Virus record (IMG/VR): IMGVR_UViG_3300043570_000570
Location: 52,183 to 116,182 of that record
Reading direction: 5' to 3' (one strand)
Length of the DNA: 64,000 nt
Source of the DNA: a virus
Below the pieces are notes generated by a model, which was not told the DNA's origin, did not search any database, and saw nothing but the letters and a program-made list of their open reading frames with translations. The translations under genes were made by a program, and so were the position numbers. Of the stretch, positions 4,293 through 52,457 are shown piece by piece (the first letter of the stretch is position 1; each line of letters begins with the position of its first letter).

Positions 4293-6746
4293 CTAGCGCT
4301 TTTTTGAGCCAGAATCGTATTTGTTTTTATTTGTTTGAGCTATTTTTAGCTTAGTGTCGATATCTTTCTCCTTGAGTGCTAGCTCTTTCTCTTTCAAACT
4401 CAGCTCTTTATTCTTAGTTACTTTCTCGAAAGTTTGTTTAGAAATATCTTGAGCTATTTTAGTTTGTTCAATTAAAAGTCCAGTAGTATCTACTTCTGGA
4501 TTATAAGAACCTTCGTTAGCAATACCTTGAAGTTGAACAATCTGAAGTTTGTTCTCACGATCTAACTGTTTGTTCATGTCATCACGTTGAGCTTCTTTCT
4601 CATCTTGGGCAGCTTCCATTTGCATCTTCTGCTGGAACTGTTCTTGTTGTTGTTGCAACTCTTGCTGTTTAAGTGCTTGATCTTGTTGACGGATAGCTTC
4701 TTTACGTTTCTGTACATCACCTAATGTCTTACGAAGACTTCTCTCAGAGTTAGCTGTAAACAAGTCTACCATTTCAGAAAGCTCTGCTCCATTCTGCATT
4801 GCAGGCTGAGCCAATTGCTTTAACTGCTCTAGAGTTACTTTGTCTTCTGCGTATGAGGATACAAATACAAACAACTCGTGAAGTAGTTCGTTCTTGCTTA
4901 CTCGTAGAAATACATTCTCTAATTCAGAGTTAAGATAGTTAAGCGTAGAAGTAGGTTTCTGCAATTCAATGTACTGAGCCATATCTAGAATAGTCTGATA
5001 TACTCTTTGAAGTACGTTGTCATGCCAAGCAAACCAAGTTTCTGTTTGAGCAAAAGATTGAATCAAAGCATTGTTAGCAGCTGTTGCTGTATCTGATGCC
5101 TGTGAGTTACCTAGACGTTGACGAGTAATACCCACTAACTCATAGGCCTCTAGACGAAGTTGTTGAGCTAATTGGATACGTGCTTGGATTTCTTGAGAAC
5201 GTGTAAGGTCAATACGAGAGAACTGGTTAAACTGTACAGCTCCTCCTGTATTCTCAATTGAAGTATCAATCAAAAGAGTACCTCTGTTCTTAGCATTCCA
5301 TAACATTGTCTCAATGGGATCTTGAGAGTCTTTTTTAGGAACTACCTTTAAGTCACCTAAGAATACAACACCAATCTCTTTTTCAAGTAATTCCCATAAC
5401 TGGTTCATACAAATGTTATAAAGAACCTGGTAAGGCTTAAGAAGATCTAGAAGAGATTTACCTTGAGTATTACGAGAAGTATTAATGATTCCTACTAATG
5501 GACAATCTTGGATAAACTCTAGAGGTTCTACGTTTACGTAGATATTAGCTCCAATTTTGATTCCTCTCCACCACTCATTGATCCAAAGTTCTTCAACAGA
5601 AATATCTCCTAGAGTTTTATCCATTTTGTACTCTTCAGATACAAACATCTCTTGTTGGTATCCTTCTTCATCTAGGTAAGTTCTTTTAAAGATTTTTTTC
5701 TTAGACTGCCAGTACGAAGTAATTACCGTATAGGCATGCTGAGAGTTAAAAGAAAATACGTTGTGATCAATACCTCCATTAGCAAAGTCACCTACGTTCT
5801 CAAACGTTAATTGCCACAAAGGATCGTTAGGATCTGGAAGTGCAGGAGCCATAGGAGAGTATTCGTTATTCCTTAAGTTCTGAAGAGAACGATCTCTTAA
5901 GTGTTCTACTTCTTCTCCTGTTAAGGTGTAGCGATCTACAATCTCAGTCATAGAAAGAACTTCAATAAGTCCTAGTGCCCAACAGTCTGTAGTGTACTGA
6001 GCATTACGATTGCCTAAGTACCATACGTTAGAAGGGTTCTCTACTTTATAATTAAATCCTAAGCGAGAATTATCAGGGTAGAAGTGGTGAAACTCTTTAC
6101 CTGTTACTAAGAAGTCTAGAAATGATTGTTGAGATTTATCTCTAAAGTTAAAATGATATTTAAGAGCATTAAGAGTTTTGTTACCCCATTCTTCAGCAAC
6201 TGAAGTATAATCCAAGATTTTATTCTGAATGTCTTGCTCCATCTGTGCTCTTTGTTCAGGATCAATTTCTTGTCCTTCTAGCTGAGCTTCTAAGTTTTTT
6301 AAGAAGTGTTCTTTAATTAACTCTGTTCTAAAGTCAATAGTTTCGTTAATCGCTTCATCATCTACAGCTTTTACTTTGTATTTGTGAGGACGGTTAATCA
6401 ACTCTCCTTTTAACTGATTGATAGGAGGGTTTACTATTGGATAGTGCTTTAAGTGCTGAGGAACATCTGGATCCTGGTTAGGAGCATCTTCCAAGTAACT
6501 AATTAGCTCTTGATAGTCTGCTACGTTTGTATAGTCAGCAAAGTTAAATTCACCGTTAAGTAAGCGGTAGTTCTTTCTAAATTCTACGTTCTGCTTGTAT
6601 TGTGCAAATGCAATATTTGCAAAGTAGTCCATAGTAGACTTTACCCAATGCTCAGACTGCTTCTCTTTTAAGCTTACAAATTGCTCAGGGTAGAAGTAGG
6701 CATGATTGACAGGGTCAGTATGCTCTTTAAATGCTTCAATAATCAT
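4293..6746 (-). CDS. Portal protein (crAss-like)
   Basis: 817 aa after TerL; HYPIVNPPIN.LKGE, EWWRGIKIG, KPYQVLYN, GITRQRLG motifs; Q-rich coiled-coil C-terminus. Confidence 0.9.
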   Translation of the reverse strand: MIIEAFKEHTDPVNHAYFYPEQFVSLKEKQSEHWVKSTMDYFANIAFAQYKQNVEFRKNYRLLNGEFNFADYTNVADYQELISYLEDAPNQDPDVPQHLKHYPIVNPPINQLKGELINRPHKYKVKAVDDEAINETIDFRTELIKEHFLKNLEAQLEGQEIDPEQRAQMEQDIQNKILDYTSVAEEWGNKTLNALKYHFNFRDKSQQSFLDFLVTGKEFHHFYPDNSRLGFNYKVENPSNVWYLGNRNAQYTTDCWALGLIEVLSMTEIVDRYTLTGEEVEHLRDRSLQNLRNNEYSPMAPALPDPNDPLWQLTFENVGDFANGGIDHNVFSFNSQHAYTVITSYWQSKKKIFKRTYLDEEGYQQEMFVSEEYKMDKTLGDISVEELWINEWWRGIKIGANIYVNVEPLEFIQDCPLVGIINTSRNTQGKSLLDLLKPYQVLYNICMNQLWELLEKEIGVVFLGDLKVVPKKDSQDPIETMLWNAKNRGTLLIDTSIENTGGAVQFNQFSRIDLTRSQEIQARIQLAQQLRLEAYELVGITRQRLGNSQASDTATAANNALIQSFAQTETWFAWHDNVLQRVYQTILDMAQYIELQKPTSTLNYLNSELENVFLRVSKNELLHELFVFVSSYAEDKVTLEQLKQLAQPAMQNGAELSEMVDLFTANSERSLRKTLGDVQKRKEAIRQQDQALKQQELQQQQEQFQQKMQMEAAQDEKEAQRDDMNKQLDRENKLQIVQLQGIANEGSYNPEVDTTGLLIEQTKIAQDISKQTFEKVTKNKELSLKEKELALKEKDIDTKLKIAQTNKNKYDSGSKKR

Positions 6747-24646: not shown

Positions 24647-25084
24647 TTACTTATATACTTTAAAGGAAGCAGTTTTATTCTTATACCCCTCATAGTCCTT
24701 ACGAAAAGATTCTAGTCTAGGTTCAATCTCATCTGACTTGATGATCCAGAACTGAGCACCTACAGCTTTTGCTTTTTCTATTTCTTGTTTATCATCAGAA
24801 CTAGAAATAATCCCTATCACCACTCCGTTGCCGTACTCAAAGTTAATCTTACGAATCAACTCTATGCCGTCAAAAGAAGAACCAATAATATTAAGGTCTA
24901 CAAAAACGCATTCAGGTCTTTCATCTGCAGGTCCTTCAACAAACCATCTCTTAAACAATCTATCAGCTTCATCAGAAGAAGTTAGAGTTTGCAGAGAAAG
25001 AGTAATGTCTAATAAGCTACAAGAATCCTCAAACACTAAGTGAAAAAGGTCTTCGTCATCTACGAGTAATATTGAGTCTATCAT
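24647..25084 (-). CDS. Single-domain response regulator (CheY-like receiver)
   Basis: ILLVDDE, phospho-Asp in VFVDLN, DGIEL, ISSS, GA..WIIK; no output domain. Confidence 0.9.
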   Translation of the reverse strand: MIDSILLVDDEDLFHLVFEDSCSLLDITLSLQTLTSSDEADRLFKRWFVEGPADERPECVFVDLNIIGSSFDGIELIRKINFEYGNGVVIGIISSSDDKQEIEKAKAVGAQFWIIKSDEIEPRLESFRKDYEGYKNKTASFKVYK

Positions 25085-25091
25085 ATTTTGT

Positions 25092-26294
25092 TTATTTTAC
25101 TTTTATCTTAAGTTTAGTTCCTGTTTCTGGTTCTTCTAGTTTCTCAGCTGTTACTTCAAACTTATGTTCTTCCATAATAGCTGTACATATGTTTAACCCT
25201 AGTCCTGTACCTGCCTCTGTCTGACCTTCTTTCCTCTTATAAGGCTTAGACCACTGTACAAAATCTTCCTGAGACATTCCCCTTCCATTATCTTCAATAA
25301 CTAAAAAATTCCCTTCAGCAAAAATACGTACTAACTTAGTGCTAGAGTCGTTATATTTTAAACCGTTTCTTATTAAATTATCAATCGCTGTACAGAACAA
25401 AGATTCGTTTACTTCAATCTCAGGTAACTCTTCAATAACTACTTGCTTCTCGTAAGAAGTAGAAGATAGGTAGCTGTGTAGAATGTCTTTTAGATTGTGT
25501 TGCTGAACCTCTAAGTGAGCATCTTGCTTAACCAAGTTAGTAAACTCTTTAACTCCGTTATAAACCTTTTGAGTGTGAATCAATCCTTCTGTAATCATTC
25601 TTAGCGGAGCATCTATCTTTAACTCTTTAATCTGCTCTTCAGTCAGTCTTCTTTTTAAGGAAGAAAGTCCCCTAGGAATATAAGTGTTAATTCCTGAGTG
25701 CATATCATGTCTTAAAATCTTAGCAGCATGTTCCAAATAGGAATTCTTTTTAGCAACCTCTGCCTCAATTCTCTTTTTCTCAGTAATCTCCGTAGCAATT
25801 AAAAGAATTTTATAAACCTCTCCGTAAGGATCTTTAATAGGATTGAAGTTTCCATAAAGCCAAGTATTGCCAAACTCATACTCTCCTTGCTTGAAATAGC
25901 CTATTCTTAAATGTGTCCAGAACTCTAACCAATCTCTCTTAGAAGAGTTGTCTAACTCCCTATGACTTTTAACCTCACCAAATATTCGCTTAAACCTGTC
26001 ATTCATACTTAACACTTCTCCATAAGTATCAAACTCTACTAGTAAGTTAGAATTATTAATTGCTTTAAAAGTAGCATCTACACTCTGAAACTTATACCTA
26101 GCTCTCCTTACAAACTCTATAGCAGGATAAAAGAAAAAAGGTAAAAACCCTACTATACACCAATACCCTACTAAATCCCGCTGGTAACTAGAATCTGTGT
26201 ACTTGAAAACAATAGCACTCTGAAAACTTAAATAAGCCAACATTATCACAGAAGCAATAACAACTGATACCTTAGACCTTATACTTAGTTTCAT
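25092..26294 (-). CDS. Membrane sensor histidine kinase (2 TM, PAS/PAC-like, HisKA, HATPase)
   Basis: H-box LRHDM, N-box NLIRNGLKY, G1 EDNGRGM, G2 GTGLGL. Confidence 0.92.
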   Translation of the reverse strand: MKLSIRSKVSVVIASVIMLAYLSFQSAIVFKYTDSSYQRDLVGYWCIVGFLPFFFYPAIEFVRRARYKFQSVDATFKAINNSNLLVEFDTYGEVLSMNDRFKRIFGEVKSHRELDNSSKRDWLEFWTHLRIGYFKQGEYEFGNTWLYGNFNPIKDPYGEVYKILLIATEITEKKRIEAEVAKKNSYLEHAAKILRHDMHSGINTYIPRGLSSLKRRLTEEQIKELKIDAPLRMITEGLIHTQKVYNGVKEFTNLVKQDAHLEVQQHNLKDILHSYLSSTSYEKQVVIEELPEIEVNESLFCTAIDNLIRNGLKYNDSSTKLVRIFAEGNFLVIEDNGRGMSQEDFVQWSKPYKRKEGQTEAGTGLGLNICTAIMEEHKFEVTAEKLEEPETGTKLKIKVK

Positions 26295-26914: not shown

Positions 26915-27307
26915 CCCACACTTTGTGGGACAAAGGGTAACTTAACTGTTTAACCTTGCCATTTTACTGTGCATTCTTCTCATTTATCTATGAAATGATA
27001 GTTTTTTTGGTCTCAGCCCGGTAAATAACGAGACAAGACTAAAGAATTCTATCATTTTATGGTATATATGTAGTGGTAAATAGTGGGGAATCACTCCCTT
27101 CAATCTTCTATTTATCACTTAAAAGTGGGTAATTGTGGGGTTGACATGGTACGTTATGAATAATTTGTTGTTCTTATGTTAAATTAGACAACTATTAACC
27201 TCTATAACCTCATTACCCTGTCTTATGCTTTTCTCTTATCTTCTCTTACGTAGTAATCATCATTAGCCTGATGATTCCTTAACTGATTCTAAGCGAACTT
27301 TACGCTT

Positions 27308-27369
27308 GGTCGACTATGCGACCTTAAATAGCCTTTAGGCATAGTGCGTCACTATATGAGTGGGTATGG
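27308..27369 (+). ncRNA. Pistol self-cleaving ribozyme
   Basis: P1 GGTCG/CGACC, loop ACTATG pairing with CATAGT (pseudoknot), TTAAATAG linker, GCG, P3 TCACT/AGTGG, GT cleavage site 27364-27365; P2 (CCT/ATGG) imperfect. Confidence 0.8.
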
Positions 27370-27524
27370 AAACAATAATTAAAGAGTATTACTTAACTGA
27401 AGGAAGTAAGTTAGTAAATTATAGCATAGGTACTAATGGTGTTGATTGTTGGTTTGATACTAATGATATTAGACAACACAGATGTTTATCTATTGAAGAT
27501 TTTGAACTTATTAAGGGGGCTTAA
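27366..27524 (+). CDS. Early mini-gene (52 aa)
   Basis: METIIKEYYL...LIKGA*; ATG lies in the pistol P2 strand. Confidence 0.6.
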   Translation: METIIKEYYLTEGSKLVNYSIGTNGVDCWFDTNDIRQHRCLSIEDFELIKGA

Positions 27525-27554
27525 TCGCCTCCTTTAAACTTTAATAAAAAGAAT

Positions 27555-27686
27555 ATGAAAACAATAGAACAAACAATTGATAGTTTAGAACAGCAAGTAA
27601 GAGATACATATCCTTCATGGAATAATGAAATGATTAGGTCTAAGGCTGTTAGAATGTATTATTTAAATGAAGAGTTGGGAGCTTAG
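27555..27686 (+). CDS. Early mini-gene (43 aa)
   Basis: MKTIEQTIDSLE...EELGA*, A-rich leader. Confidence 0.6.
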   Translation: MKTIEQTIDSLEQQVRDTYPSWNNEMIRSKAVRMYYLNEELGA

Positions 27687-27712
27687 TCTCCCTTTACTTT
27701 AACTAAACAAAT

Positions 27713-27862
27713 ATGAAAAACTATAGAGTCACCTACTATAATACAGAATATAGCATTAAGTCTATTTCTGTTATGGCTTTTACTCAAGAAGAAGCAAGAA
27801 CTTATGTATATAGTCACATAGAAGATTGTGTTCAAACACTCTCTGCTGAATATATATACTAA
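27713..27862 (+). CDS. Early mini-gene (49 aa)
   Basis: MKNYRVTYY...AFTQEEAR..., A-rich leader. Confidence 0.6.
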   Translation: MKNYRVTYYNTEYSIKSISVMAFTQEEARTYVYSHIEDCVQTLSAEYIY

Positions 27863-27867
27863 ACATT

Positions 27868-27969
27868 ATCAAAGAGTAGTAACACTGCATGTAAACTGGT
27901 TATCCTTGATTACAGTATGCAGACCTTTACATAGTAAATCAAGCTATGTTATGTATTGGACTCTTTGAT
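27868..27969 (+). ncRNA. Unassigned three-way-junction RNA with kissing loops
   Basis: 10-bp closing stem and two inner hairpins whose loops CTTGATT/AATCAAG are complementary. Confidence 0.55.
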
Positions 27970-28114
27970 TACTTTAATGCATCATAACCTACTTCACAAG
28001 GGTAGGCAGTTGTAATAACAGTATAGAGTCTGGAGAACCAAGCGTAAGCTGGACATAGGTAGTTCTCATGAAGCTGCGGAAGCTACTATTACAACTGAAT
28101 GCAGAGTGAAGTAA
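27969..28114 (+). ncRNA. Twister ribozyme (type P1, long P5 insertion)
   Basis: P1 TTACTT/AAGTAA, TAA cleavage loop 27975-27977, P2 TGCA/TGCA, P4 CCTAC/GTAGG with TCACAAG loop, 3' GAGTG (CAC/GTG pseudoknot), 11-bp P5 28007-28017/28087-28097. Confidence 0.85.
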
Positions 28115-28211
28115 ACTACAAGGTATGGTATATCCTACTAACACGTCTAGAGGACCTTGTAGTTCTTTTATACCTAAGGGTATTATACCAACTAGTATAA
28201 ACTAAACAGAT

Positions 28212-28424
28212 ATGAAGAAATTTATAATATTCTCTACGTTAAGTCAAGCAAAGAATTACATTAAGCGTAATCTTCCCACCTATAACCATGATGATGGATG
28301 TGGGTGTTGCTATAGTTATTCTTATCCTTTAATACAGGGTAAGCGTATTGTCTATGTTAATAGTTATTCTAACATGGGTAATCCAACTACTGAAGTAACT
28401 GTCATTGGCAGATACAAAAGATAA
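28212..28424 (+). CDS. Early hypothetical protein (GCGCC motif)
   Basis: 70 aa, A-rich leader. Confidence 0.6.
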   Translation: MKKFIIFSTLSQAKNYIKRNLPTYNHDDGCGCCYSYSYPLIQGKRIVYVNSYSNMGNPTTEVTVIGRYKR

Positions 28425-28581
28425 ACACTCTACTGGCTATAGAGTGTATAAAATGTCGTGATTGGCCACACGTCAAGGCAAATGAAGATGTCTTTGAAAC
28501 ACAAAGATGTTTCTAAAGGGGATTAGTGAACTAATGATCTAATCCCTCATCTTTTTTAACTAATTAACTAATTAAAAAAAT

Positions 28582-29642: not shown

Positions 29643-29714
29643 GTCCCTTTCGTCTATTGGTAGGACAGCAGGATTTCATCCTGTTAAAGGTGTGTTCGAT
29701 TCACCCAGGGGATA
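29643..29714 (+). tRNA. tRNA-Glu (TTC), slightly degenerate, no encoded CCA
   Basis: Acceptor GTCCCTT/AGGGGAT, D arm, anticodon stem GCAGG/CCTGT with loop ATTTCAT, GTTCGATTC T-loop with one stem mismatch. Confidence 0.8.
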
Positions 29715-29729
29715 CTAAACTAACTAACT

Positions 29730-51809: not shown

Positions 51810-52457
51810 ATGTTAAAGAGAACAGCAACAAAAAAGATTCCAGTCAAAGGAATACCTGAACCTAAGGAAATTCAAAAGCCTTGTTCAGACTGTGGGAAGG
51901 TAAAAGCCATAGCCAACAAAACAAAGAGGTTATGTGCTACGTGTGTAATGAAGGACAAGAAAGAAAAGCAGAAAGTCCGTAAAGAGATTAAGCGTAAATT
52001 AGAAAAAGAAACAATCAGTCAAAGTAAACTAGACCAGATAACTTCTTGGTTAGTTAGAGGAGCACATATTAATAAATGCCATGCTTGTGAAATCACACTA
52101 GATCCTAAAGGACTACAGTGTGCTCACTTTGTAGGTAGAACTAAGGTTGCTACTCGCTACCACCTAACTAATCTTTTGCCTGCTTGTCCTAGATGTAATC
52201 TATATACTCCTCACCACGTGTGGAACTTAGGTAAGTCTTTAAACAGGATATGGGGAACTGATACTACGGAAGATATGCTACAGCTTTCTAATAAGATTTT
52301 AAAATTAAGTAACTACGATAGAAAACTTATCTATGACGTTTATAGAACCTGCCTTACAGATATCGAACAAGGAAACTATAGCCAAGATCAGAAGTATCAA
52401 AAGTTACACCAAGCACTGAAGGATTATAACAAGATAGTGGAACCCTTATTAAAATGA
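51810..52457 (+). CDS. NinG/Rap-like Zn-finger HNH endonuclease
   Basis: CxxC pairs, QCAHFVGR...TRY...N...C..CN. Confidence 0.78.
   Translation: MLKRTATKKIPVKGIPEPKEIQKPCSDCGKVKAIANKTKRLCATCVMKDKKEKQKVRKEIKRKLEKETISQSKLDQITSWLVRGAHINKCHACEITLDPKGLQCAHFVGRTKVATRYHLTNLLPACPRCNLYTPHHVWNLGKSLNRIWGTDTTEDMLQLSNKILKLSNYDRKLIYDVYRTCLTDIEQGNYSQDQKYQKLHQALKDYNKIVEPLLK

Follow-up and report, generated by a model that had tools for sequence, protein, structure and literature searches.

Architecture of the element

The stretch of DNA analysed here (the window; 64,000 nucleotides, nt) covers positions 52,183 to 116,182 of the virus record IMGVR_UViG_3300043570_000570, a lake-phage genome of 116 kb, and all coordinates without a locus name refer to the window. 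On its plus strand lies a 146-nt element (27969–28114) that, judging from its sequence and that of its relatives, is probably an intact and uncatalogued twister-type ribozyme. It would represent a phage-borne subtype, of type P1, without P3 and with a closed P5. The element starts 106 nt past the stop codon of an open reading frame (ORF) of 49 amino acids and ends 97 nt before the ATG of an ORF of 70 amino acids; the small proteins flanking it matched no Pfam or PHROG family.

All parts of the element are on the plus strand. Helix P1 is formed by six base pairs (bp) between UUACUU (27969–27974) and AAGUAA (28109–28114). The predicted scissile bond, U27975|A27976, lies within U|AA (27975–27977), which aligns with the UAA of the Rfam twister-P1 consensus. 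It is followed by the 5′ strand of P2, UGCAU (27978–27982), which pairs with AUGCA (28099–28103). Loop L2 is represented by C27983, a candidate partner in the T2 pseudoknot, and leads into a junction AUAA (27983–27987 in all). The P4 hairpin (27988–28006) reads CCUAC, UUCACAAGG and GUAGG, with 27988–27992 paired to 28002–28006, and its loop L4 contains both the T1 triplet CAC (27995–27997) and a GG (28000–28001). Next comes the P5 arm (28007–28097), which has a perfect 11-bp base (28007–28017 with 28087–28097) enclosing a 69-nt insert (28018–28086). A single junction base, A28098, separates it from the 3′ strand of P2. G28104-A28105, the G being at the position of the catalytic guanine, align with the GA of GAGGG in the Rfam consensus, and GUG (28106–28108) is the 3′ strand of T1, pairing with the CAC of L4. 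The resulting order, P1, U|AA, P2, P4/L4, closed P5, P2′, G-A, T1′ and P1′, is that of a type-P1 twister. An earlier note on this DNA had described the twister core, the CAC/GTG pseudoknot of T1 and the 11-bp P5, as well as three small helices inside the insert (GAGAAC/GUUCUC, AGC-GUAA-GCU and AGCU/AGCU); every one of these is present in the sequence.

Distribution and covariation

Relatives were collected from IMG/VR with two degenerate patterns, each of which gave at least 120 matches; the family sample consists of the matches listed, from which 118 full copies (107 unique) could be parsed. Because of these patterns, 15 core bases are fixed in the sample. Fourteen members with a short P5, the window copy not among them, served to build a covariance model (R1), which gave the window copy a score of 82.5 bits (E ≃ 1e-22); this is the sole copy in its genome. 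R1 identifies at least 106 copies at E ≤ 1e-12 across 96 IMG/VR loci (numbered with the prefix L below), including some that do not match the patterns, and several contigs (L001, L003, L019 and L118) carry two or three copies within ∼1 kb. An 18-mer of the 5′ core also occurs in other IMG/VR contigs, and the window stretch is present in 20 lake-water DNA sequencing runs. Bacterial and archaeal genomes gave at least 120 pattern matches, nearly all of which fail the core checks. Among the matches listed there, only L283, a contig of a metagenome-assembled genome, passes them, and L336 has a paired P4 with the 3′ core not found. Only one or two of these bacterial matches look real; on present data the family is a phage one, and the bacterial and archaeal matches allowed no host to be inferred.

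Base pairs were counted in a 106-row alignment (A3); the nested helices are included in R1 and T1 is left out of it. The fraction of paired cells is 100% for P2 and for P4, 98.4% for T1, 96.3% for P5 and 70.3% for P1, and 26 of the 32 pairs show changes on both sides. Not one of 500 shuffles matches any of the five pairing measures, and sliding the partner columns by 1–3 positions reduces pairing to 27–48%. P1 has changes on both sides at all seven of its pairs. P2 has compensatory changes at three of five pairs, including the fifth (UGUAC/GUACA and UGCGU/ACGCA are among its variants). P4 is represented by 20 distinct stems, each with all five pairs intact and with four of the five pairs covarying, and ten of the 11 pairs in the base of P5 covary. 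Each variable pair of T1 shows 20–22 double changes, and the T1 types CCC/GGG (67 copies), CCA/UGG (25), CAC/GUG (18) and CUC/GAG (one) are seen among the 118 parsed copies. We regard T1 as the cleanest evidence because it is absent from the alignment model, whereas the counts for the nested helices lean towards the model. Over P2, P4, T1 and P5 together, G·U pairs outnumber A·C pairs by 49 to 10; the excess indicates that the pairing is at the RNA level and is strand-specific. Covariation thus establishes both the helices and the pseudoknot.

The nucleotides at the cut site are U in 101 of the 106 rows and A in all 106 at each of the two following positions, with the AA lying outside the search patterns. 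The G that precedes T1′ is found in 105 of the 106 rows and the A after it in all of them, neither being fixed by the patterns; the T1′ triplet, too, is outside what the patterns specify. In solved twister structures the roles of general acid and general base have been proposed for the cut-site adenine and for the guanine that follows P2 (PMC5408937). The homology of the copies and the conservation of their catalytic-site nucleotides are direct observations; self-cleavage, and its effect on the transcript, are what we infer from them. The main reason to expect activity is that the catalytic positions are conserved and that T1 has been repaired repeatedly. With at least 106 homologues that covary in P1, P2, P4, P5 and T1 and conserve the cleavage-site A and the G-A, the twister identity put forward in the earlier note appears to be correct.

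We also considered that P5 might really be P3, or that the blocks might be permuted. This was rejected, since it is the first hairpin whose loop covaries with the T1′ triplet, which makes this hairpin P4/L4 and the long arm P5, as had been assigned in the earlier note. The block order is the ordinary type-P1 order and is neither a circular nor a non-circular permutation (cf. PMC10085705).

Two loci carry irregular copies. In L005:6023–6200 the 5′ half is of the CAC type and the 3′ half of the UGG type, so that T1 is mismatched (CAC with UGG) in an otherwise intact element, and L002 (minus strand, ∼1390–1409) has the 5′ half of the core only, after which the sequence diverges. The chimera and the half core point to recombination inside the element.

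Comparison with known twisters

The family has the same element order (P1-UAA-P2-L2-P4/L4-P5-P2′-GA-T1′-P1′) as type-P1 twisters with a P5/L5 (PMC5408937, PMC6154101, RF03160, PMC11662667). Like canonical twisters, it has a T1 of three pairs that joins L4 to the 3′ strand of L1, retains the cut-site A and the G at the catalytic position, places P2 directly after UAA and keeps the U, the T1 triplet, the AA and the G of L4. A variable P5 on the 3′ side of L2 is likewise a feature of known twisters. The differences are best seen against the Rfam consensus, which on the canonical-type copy L163:7390–7454 reads P1-UAA-P2 (4 bp)-GC-P3-P4 with the loop string G-UCCCAAGC-C, followed by UAAA-P2′-GAGGG-P1′. 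The family has no P3 and a closed P5 is the rule, with arms of median length 80 nt, whereas P3 is found in 78% and a closed P5 in about 1% of known twisters (PMC6154101). L2 is YC (Y being a pyrimidine) instead of the conserved GC of canonical twisters (PMC5408937), and L4 is UUCNNAAGG instead of UCCCAAGC, one base longer and ending in GG rather than GC. The canonical UAAA of the 3′ junction is replaced by a single A, and there is an extra covarying fifth pair in P2. The closing pair of P4, a near-invariant G-C in canonical twisters, is C-G in 83 cases, U-A in 13, A-U in four, G-C in four and U·G in two; the family thus follows neither this rule nor the canonical L4 string U-CCC-AA-GC.

Canonical-type twisters are also found in phage loci of the family (L163:7390–7454, L194:3712–3782, L120:4157–4221 and L193:2778–2842). 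They lie in the same genomic islands and share with the family an identical UAA-UGCA…UGCA-GA-NNN core and the T1 variants CCA/UGG and CAC/GUG, but unlike the family they have GC in L2, a P3 hairpin, AAGC in L4, a UAAA or UAA junction and no P5. On RF03160 the copy in L163 scores 57.0 bits, compared with 18.8 bits for L035, a member of the variant family with a minimal P5. As 57.0 bits is below the gathering threshold of 67.2 bits, ordinary phage twisters are also missed by a default Rfam search. Twister-sister (RF02681), which has no L4–L1 pseudoknot and is cleaved on the opposite strand, does not fit, given the covarying T1, and had no match in the permissive Rfam scan of 27850–28250.

The T2 pseudoknot is a candidate only. 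As L2 is YC and L4 ends in GG, two T2 pairs are possible (a C-G plus either C-G or U·G), and the candidate partners never vary; this invariance is in part a product of the search patterns, and the L2 C (27983 in the window) is invariant but at a position fixed by the search pattern. The L2 pyrimidine and the purine before P2′, which would form the fifth P2 pair, are C-G in 74 copies, U-A in 31 and U·G in one. In the window the pyrimidine is U27982, whose candidate partners are A28099 in P2 and G28001 in T2, and C27983 would face G28000. Their covariation is seen over all three main T1 types, which argues that the fifth P2 pair is real. An alternative reading of T2, in which YC pairs with GG and the first pair is flipped (C-G or U·G), also fits the data and is in the range that twisters tested by others tolerate. 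In published work activity survives the replacement of most T1 pairs, and of C14-G30 in T2, by other Watson–Crick pairs, and every single change of G13 in the rice twister Osa-1-4 kills activity (PMC5113685). G·U wobbles in the pseudoknots, including the two-pair pseudoknot, are tolerated in tested twisters, and non-wobble mismatches in the two-pair pseudoknot strongly lower cleavage (PMC11662667).

Several observations weigh against the assignment of the element as a working twister. The canonical GC of L2 and AAGC of L4 are here YC and AAGG, and single changes at G13 inactivate Osa-1-4 (PMC5113685). The L2 pyrimidine may extend P2 and so reduce T2 to one pair, and with invariant T2 candidates covariation is uninformative for this pseudoknot. 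The Rfam twister models, which the earlier note had proposed as a check, do not match the copy: a permissive scan of 27850–28250 (401 nt, E ≤ 10) detects no twister family and RF03160 has no match in the entire 116-kb virus record at the same cut-off. L035:261–325 does align end to end with RF03160 (E = 0.055 in a 101-nt scan), with UAA, P2, GAGGG and P1 lined up, but its 18.8 bits are far under the gathering threshold. The metatranscriptomes add little: four runs have small parts of the stretch, as contigs only, and two of these, X23 and X24, cover 28010–28115 of it; such contigs are uninformative on ends, strand and expression and speak neither for nor against cleavage. The activity of every member of the family is, finally, a prediction.

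The family is missed by the standard RNA catalogue. A scan of the whole window at the Rfam gathering level returned only a pistol ribozyme and a tRNA and no twister, whole-locus Rfam scans of the relatives L001, L003, L004, L005, L035 and L062 gave no twister match, and neither the window copy nor L035 reaches the gathering threshold (RF03160, 67.2 bits; RF03154 and RF02684 were also considered). A blastn search of 27200–28450 against 50,697 deposited phages had no match. A description of this subtype was not found in the literature searched, which does not prove its absence.

The P5 arm

P5 arms range from 13 to 312 nt with a median of 80 nt (98 unique arms), and a single 11-mer, the dominant sequence of the P5 base, begins 42 of the 98. 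Beyond the base, 65 of 90 inserts have no detectable similarity to any other and no k-mer is enriched. The 69-nt insert of the window copy has no homologue among the 90 other inserts, and no diverged relative with the same insert was found in IMG/VR, where an insert-specific 17-mer matched only L236, with no similarity beyond the 17-mer itself. The minimum free energy of this insert is −13.9 kcal/mol, compared with a mean of −14.67 kcal/mol for shuffled sequences (z = +0.29); of 200 dinucleotide shuffles, 121 are as stable or more so. The whole P5 of the window has a z of −2.32; only the 11-bp stem exceeds chance and the small inner helices do not. For 76 arms of the family, taken inside the first 8 bp of the stem, folding is on average somewhat more stable than in mononucleotide shuffles, with a mean z of −1.40. 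Four members cap P5 with a hairpin of 13–16 nt and keep the entire core. All natural twisters with a P5/L5 stem-loop that were tested in a small published sample cleaved to more than 80%; the length or stability of P5/L5 had no effect on cleavage and no consensus could be derived for the stem-loops (PMC11662667).

As the insert is hypervariable, dispensable and no more structured than chance, it is best described as a variable peripheral extension with nothing to mark it as a sensor. The distal 69 nt thus look like a fast-evolving, dispensable addition on a conserved 11-bp base. The family resembles the natural allosteric ribozyme glmS and engineered twister aptazymes (the latter in PMC5052635) in carrying an extra domain on a peripheral stem of a self-cleaving core, but unlike these, which have a conserved or designed ligand pocket, it has a P5 domain that is hypervariable and dispensable.

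Hairpins with the stem ends of the P5 base (CARUUGUA…UACAAYUG) are also found free-standing. There are 13 of these, most of them within ∼1 kb of a ribozyme copy and none in the window (L001:1272–1373, L001:1567–1750, L023:4383–4562, L170:7232–7301, L194:564–618 and eight more).

A conserved motif downstream

Directly 3′ of P1′ the plus strand carries a conserved 49-nt RNA motif (28115–28163). It consists of an 8-bp outer stem (CUACAAGG with CCUUGUAG), an inner UAUGG-loop-CCUAC and a conserved 16-nt strand, UAACACNUCUAGNGGA, with a U-rich run behind it that extends to ∼28172. A covariance model of the motif (R2) scores the window copy at 52.6 bits (E = 1e-10). In IMG/VR the motif occurs in 36 contigs, among which there are 19 different outer stems, complementary and hence covarying (pairs counted by anchoring), and the window scans gave no Rfam match for it. 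A search with R2 over ∼1 Mb of family loci produced eight hits, all on the strand of the ribozyme: four lie within a P5-type stem (L170, L205, L223 and L150) and four lie 0–220 nt downstream of a ribozyme copy (the window, L086, L003 and L195).

Elsewhere the motif follows tRNA-like sequence; in L245 and L259 this ends in GGGTTCGAATCCC and GGGTTGGAATCCC, respectively, just upstream of the motif, and L195 and L247 are similar. An RNA-library contig from run X23 contains the window copy's own P5 insert with two differences. Past P1′ it has, in place of the 49-nt motif, a CAAUUGUAAC-type hairpin like that at L001:1567–1750. As this contig continues into a different neighbour, the 3′ flank is mosaic between close relatives.

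Genomic context

All 106 family copies are outside same-strand ORFs of 45 or more amino acids. The copies are intergenic, and their orientation always matches the gene strand. In the window a pistol ribozyme (RF02679, 27308–27369, plus strand) is found ∼600 nt upstream, with a score of 47.8 bits against a cut-off of 34.5 bits and a match to model positions 1–68. Its predicted cut, G27364|U27365, is one base ahead of an ATG at 27366. L005 repeats the arrangement around an unrelated ORF, with a pistol at 5714–5776, an ATG at 5773 and the variant twister 17 nt after the stop codon. The earlier note had pointed to two ribozyme classes close together; the pistol is real and its pairing with the variant twister recurs in L005. 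Cleavage by the pistol would give a nearly leaderless mRNA in both phages, and in the window the two predicted cuts would release a 611-nt RNA with three small ORFs.

That self-cleaving ribozymes of different classes cluster near phage genes is already known (PMC10085705, PMC6765202). The pistols near the window and L005 copies and a hatchet near the L154 copy are like these and are nothing new in kind, and the other classes accompany a minority of the family copies: 15 random family loci gave one hatchet and no pistol or other class. The hatchet (L154:46–208, 81.1 bits) is ∼880 nt upstream of the family copy. A freshwater-1 RNA (84.4 bits) is found at L102:6912–6973. tRNA genes are present in eight of the 15 scanned loci, in each case co-oriented with the copy; the window has one at 29643–29715, which ARAGORN reads as tRNA-Glu. 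Divergent from the ribozyme-bearing gene block, the minus strand of the window encodes, within 24647–26294, a histidine-kinase-like protein (HATPase_c, E = 1e-12) and a stand-alone receiver-domain protein, the latter scoring 29.9 bits, just below the Pfam cut-off of 30.2 bits.

Proposed mechanism and alternative explanations

If the element is active, it would be transcribed together with the co-oriented block of small genes and fold into P1-T1-P2, the T1 pseudoknot (CAC with GUG) docking P4 and the P5 arm pointing away from the core. The RNA would then cut itself between U27975 and A27976. The upstream RNA, with its three small ORFs, would be left with a 2′,3′-cyclic phosphate, and the downstream RNA would gain a 5′-OH and begin with the folded ribozyme, followed by the 49-nt motif and the U-rich run.

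One challenge to catalysis is that the element is a structured RNA of twister descent in which the fold has been kept, as a stabilizing 5′ or 3′ structure or as a binding scaffold, and cleavage has been lost through the altered T2. The YC in place of the L2 GC, the longer L4 and the variable closing pair of P4 would all fit such a loss, as would the inactivity of the Osa-1-4 G13 mutants (PMC5113685), the damage done by mismatches in the two-pair pseudoknot (PMC11662667) and the mismatched T1 of the otherwise intact L005 copy. On the other hand, the nucleotides needed for chemistry alone are invariant or nearly so (the cut-site A, the G-A and, in 101 of 106 rows, the U), YC with GG still allows two T2 pairs in a pseudoknot in which wobbles are tolerated (PMC11662667), and T1 has been kept through repeated compensatory change, as expected under selection for the geometry of an active site. 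We therefore consider a non-catalytic RNA improbable. That the element acts as DNA, as a recombination site or as a mobile element with the 11-bp P5 arms as its terminal inverted repeats, is scarcely credible. The ends of P5 are indeed near-palindromic inverted repeats flanking variable DNA, and L002 and L005 show recombination within the element, but G·U exceeds A·C by five to one, duplex DNA gives no reason for covariation in a pseudoknot and every copy is intergenic and in the orientation of the gene strand.

Two further proposals are compatible with a cleaving twister and concern what it carries. In the earlier note it was suggested that the branched P5 insert of ∼70 nt could be an allosteric (ligand-sensing) or protein-binding module, which would govern how fast the RNA is cleaved. 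A factor recognizing the base of the stem is conceivable, as P5 is near-universal and its dominant 11-mer is also seen in free hairpins, and engineered twisters accept aptamers in peripheral stems (PMC5052635). Inserts of 13–312 nt without a common sequence or k-mer, however, together with the intact cores of the four short-capped members, an insert in the window copy that folds no better than chance and has no IMG/VR homologue, and the published independence of cleavage from P5/L5 (PMC11662667), make this very unlikely, and the proposal does not survive for the window copy. The other possibility is that the ribozyme serves to define where a separate small RNA (∼190–200 nt) begins, an RNA made up of the ribozyme body, the P5 arm and the motif at 28115–28163 and ending at the U-rich run, with P5 arms and 3′ flanks serving as slots for small RNA modules. 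The positions and common strand of the eight R2 matches favour this, as do the U-rich run behind the outer stem in the window, L086, L003, L195 and others, the 13 stand-alone hairpins near ribozyme copies and the better than random folding of the P5 arms on average. Against it, only three of the 37 IMG/VR copies of the motif adjoin a twister core, most P5 inserts are singletons with no recognizable module (65 of 90), the window insert is no more structured than chance, and the U-run is interrupted and was not called as a terminator in a consensus scan. We consider it rather unlikely. Islands built from small RNA modules might even amount to a modular small-RNA production system in lake phages that combines the variant twister, the conserved P5-type hairpin and the 49-nt UAUGG/CCUAC-UAACAC motif. 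In such a system, which we think doubtful, the ribozyme would free itself from the early mRNA and set the 5′-OH end of a stable noncoding RNA, whose functional part would be carried in the P5 slot or immediately downstream of the ribozyme, the latter being the case for 28115–28163 in the window.

Significance

The role of twister and other small ribozymes in bacteria and phages is an open question (PMC6765202). The variant twister family offers more than 100 natural copies of one subtype in a uniform setting, between small co-oriented phage genes and sometimes together with pistol, hatchet or canonical twister ribozymes. The idea of a regulatory insert is not upheld for the window copy; what is new at this locus is the conserved 49-nt RNA motif immediately behind the ribozyme. 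The natural variation of the family informs twister structure, with an altered T2/P2 junction and a P5 arm whose length is almost unrestricted. Should the family prove active, the Rfam twister models would need a further seed and the requirement for GC in L2 would have to be seen as less strict. The layout of pistol, ORFs and twister in the window, with predicted cuts at 27364/27365 and 27975/27976, would then lend itself to simple tests of how ends made by ribozymes influence the translation and stability of phage mRNA.

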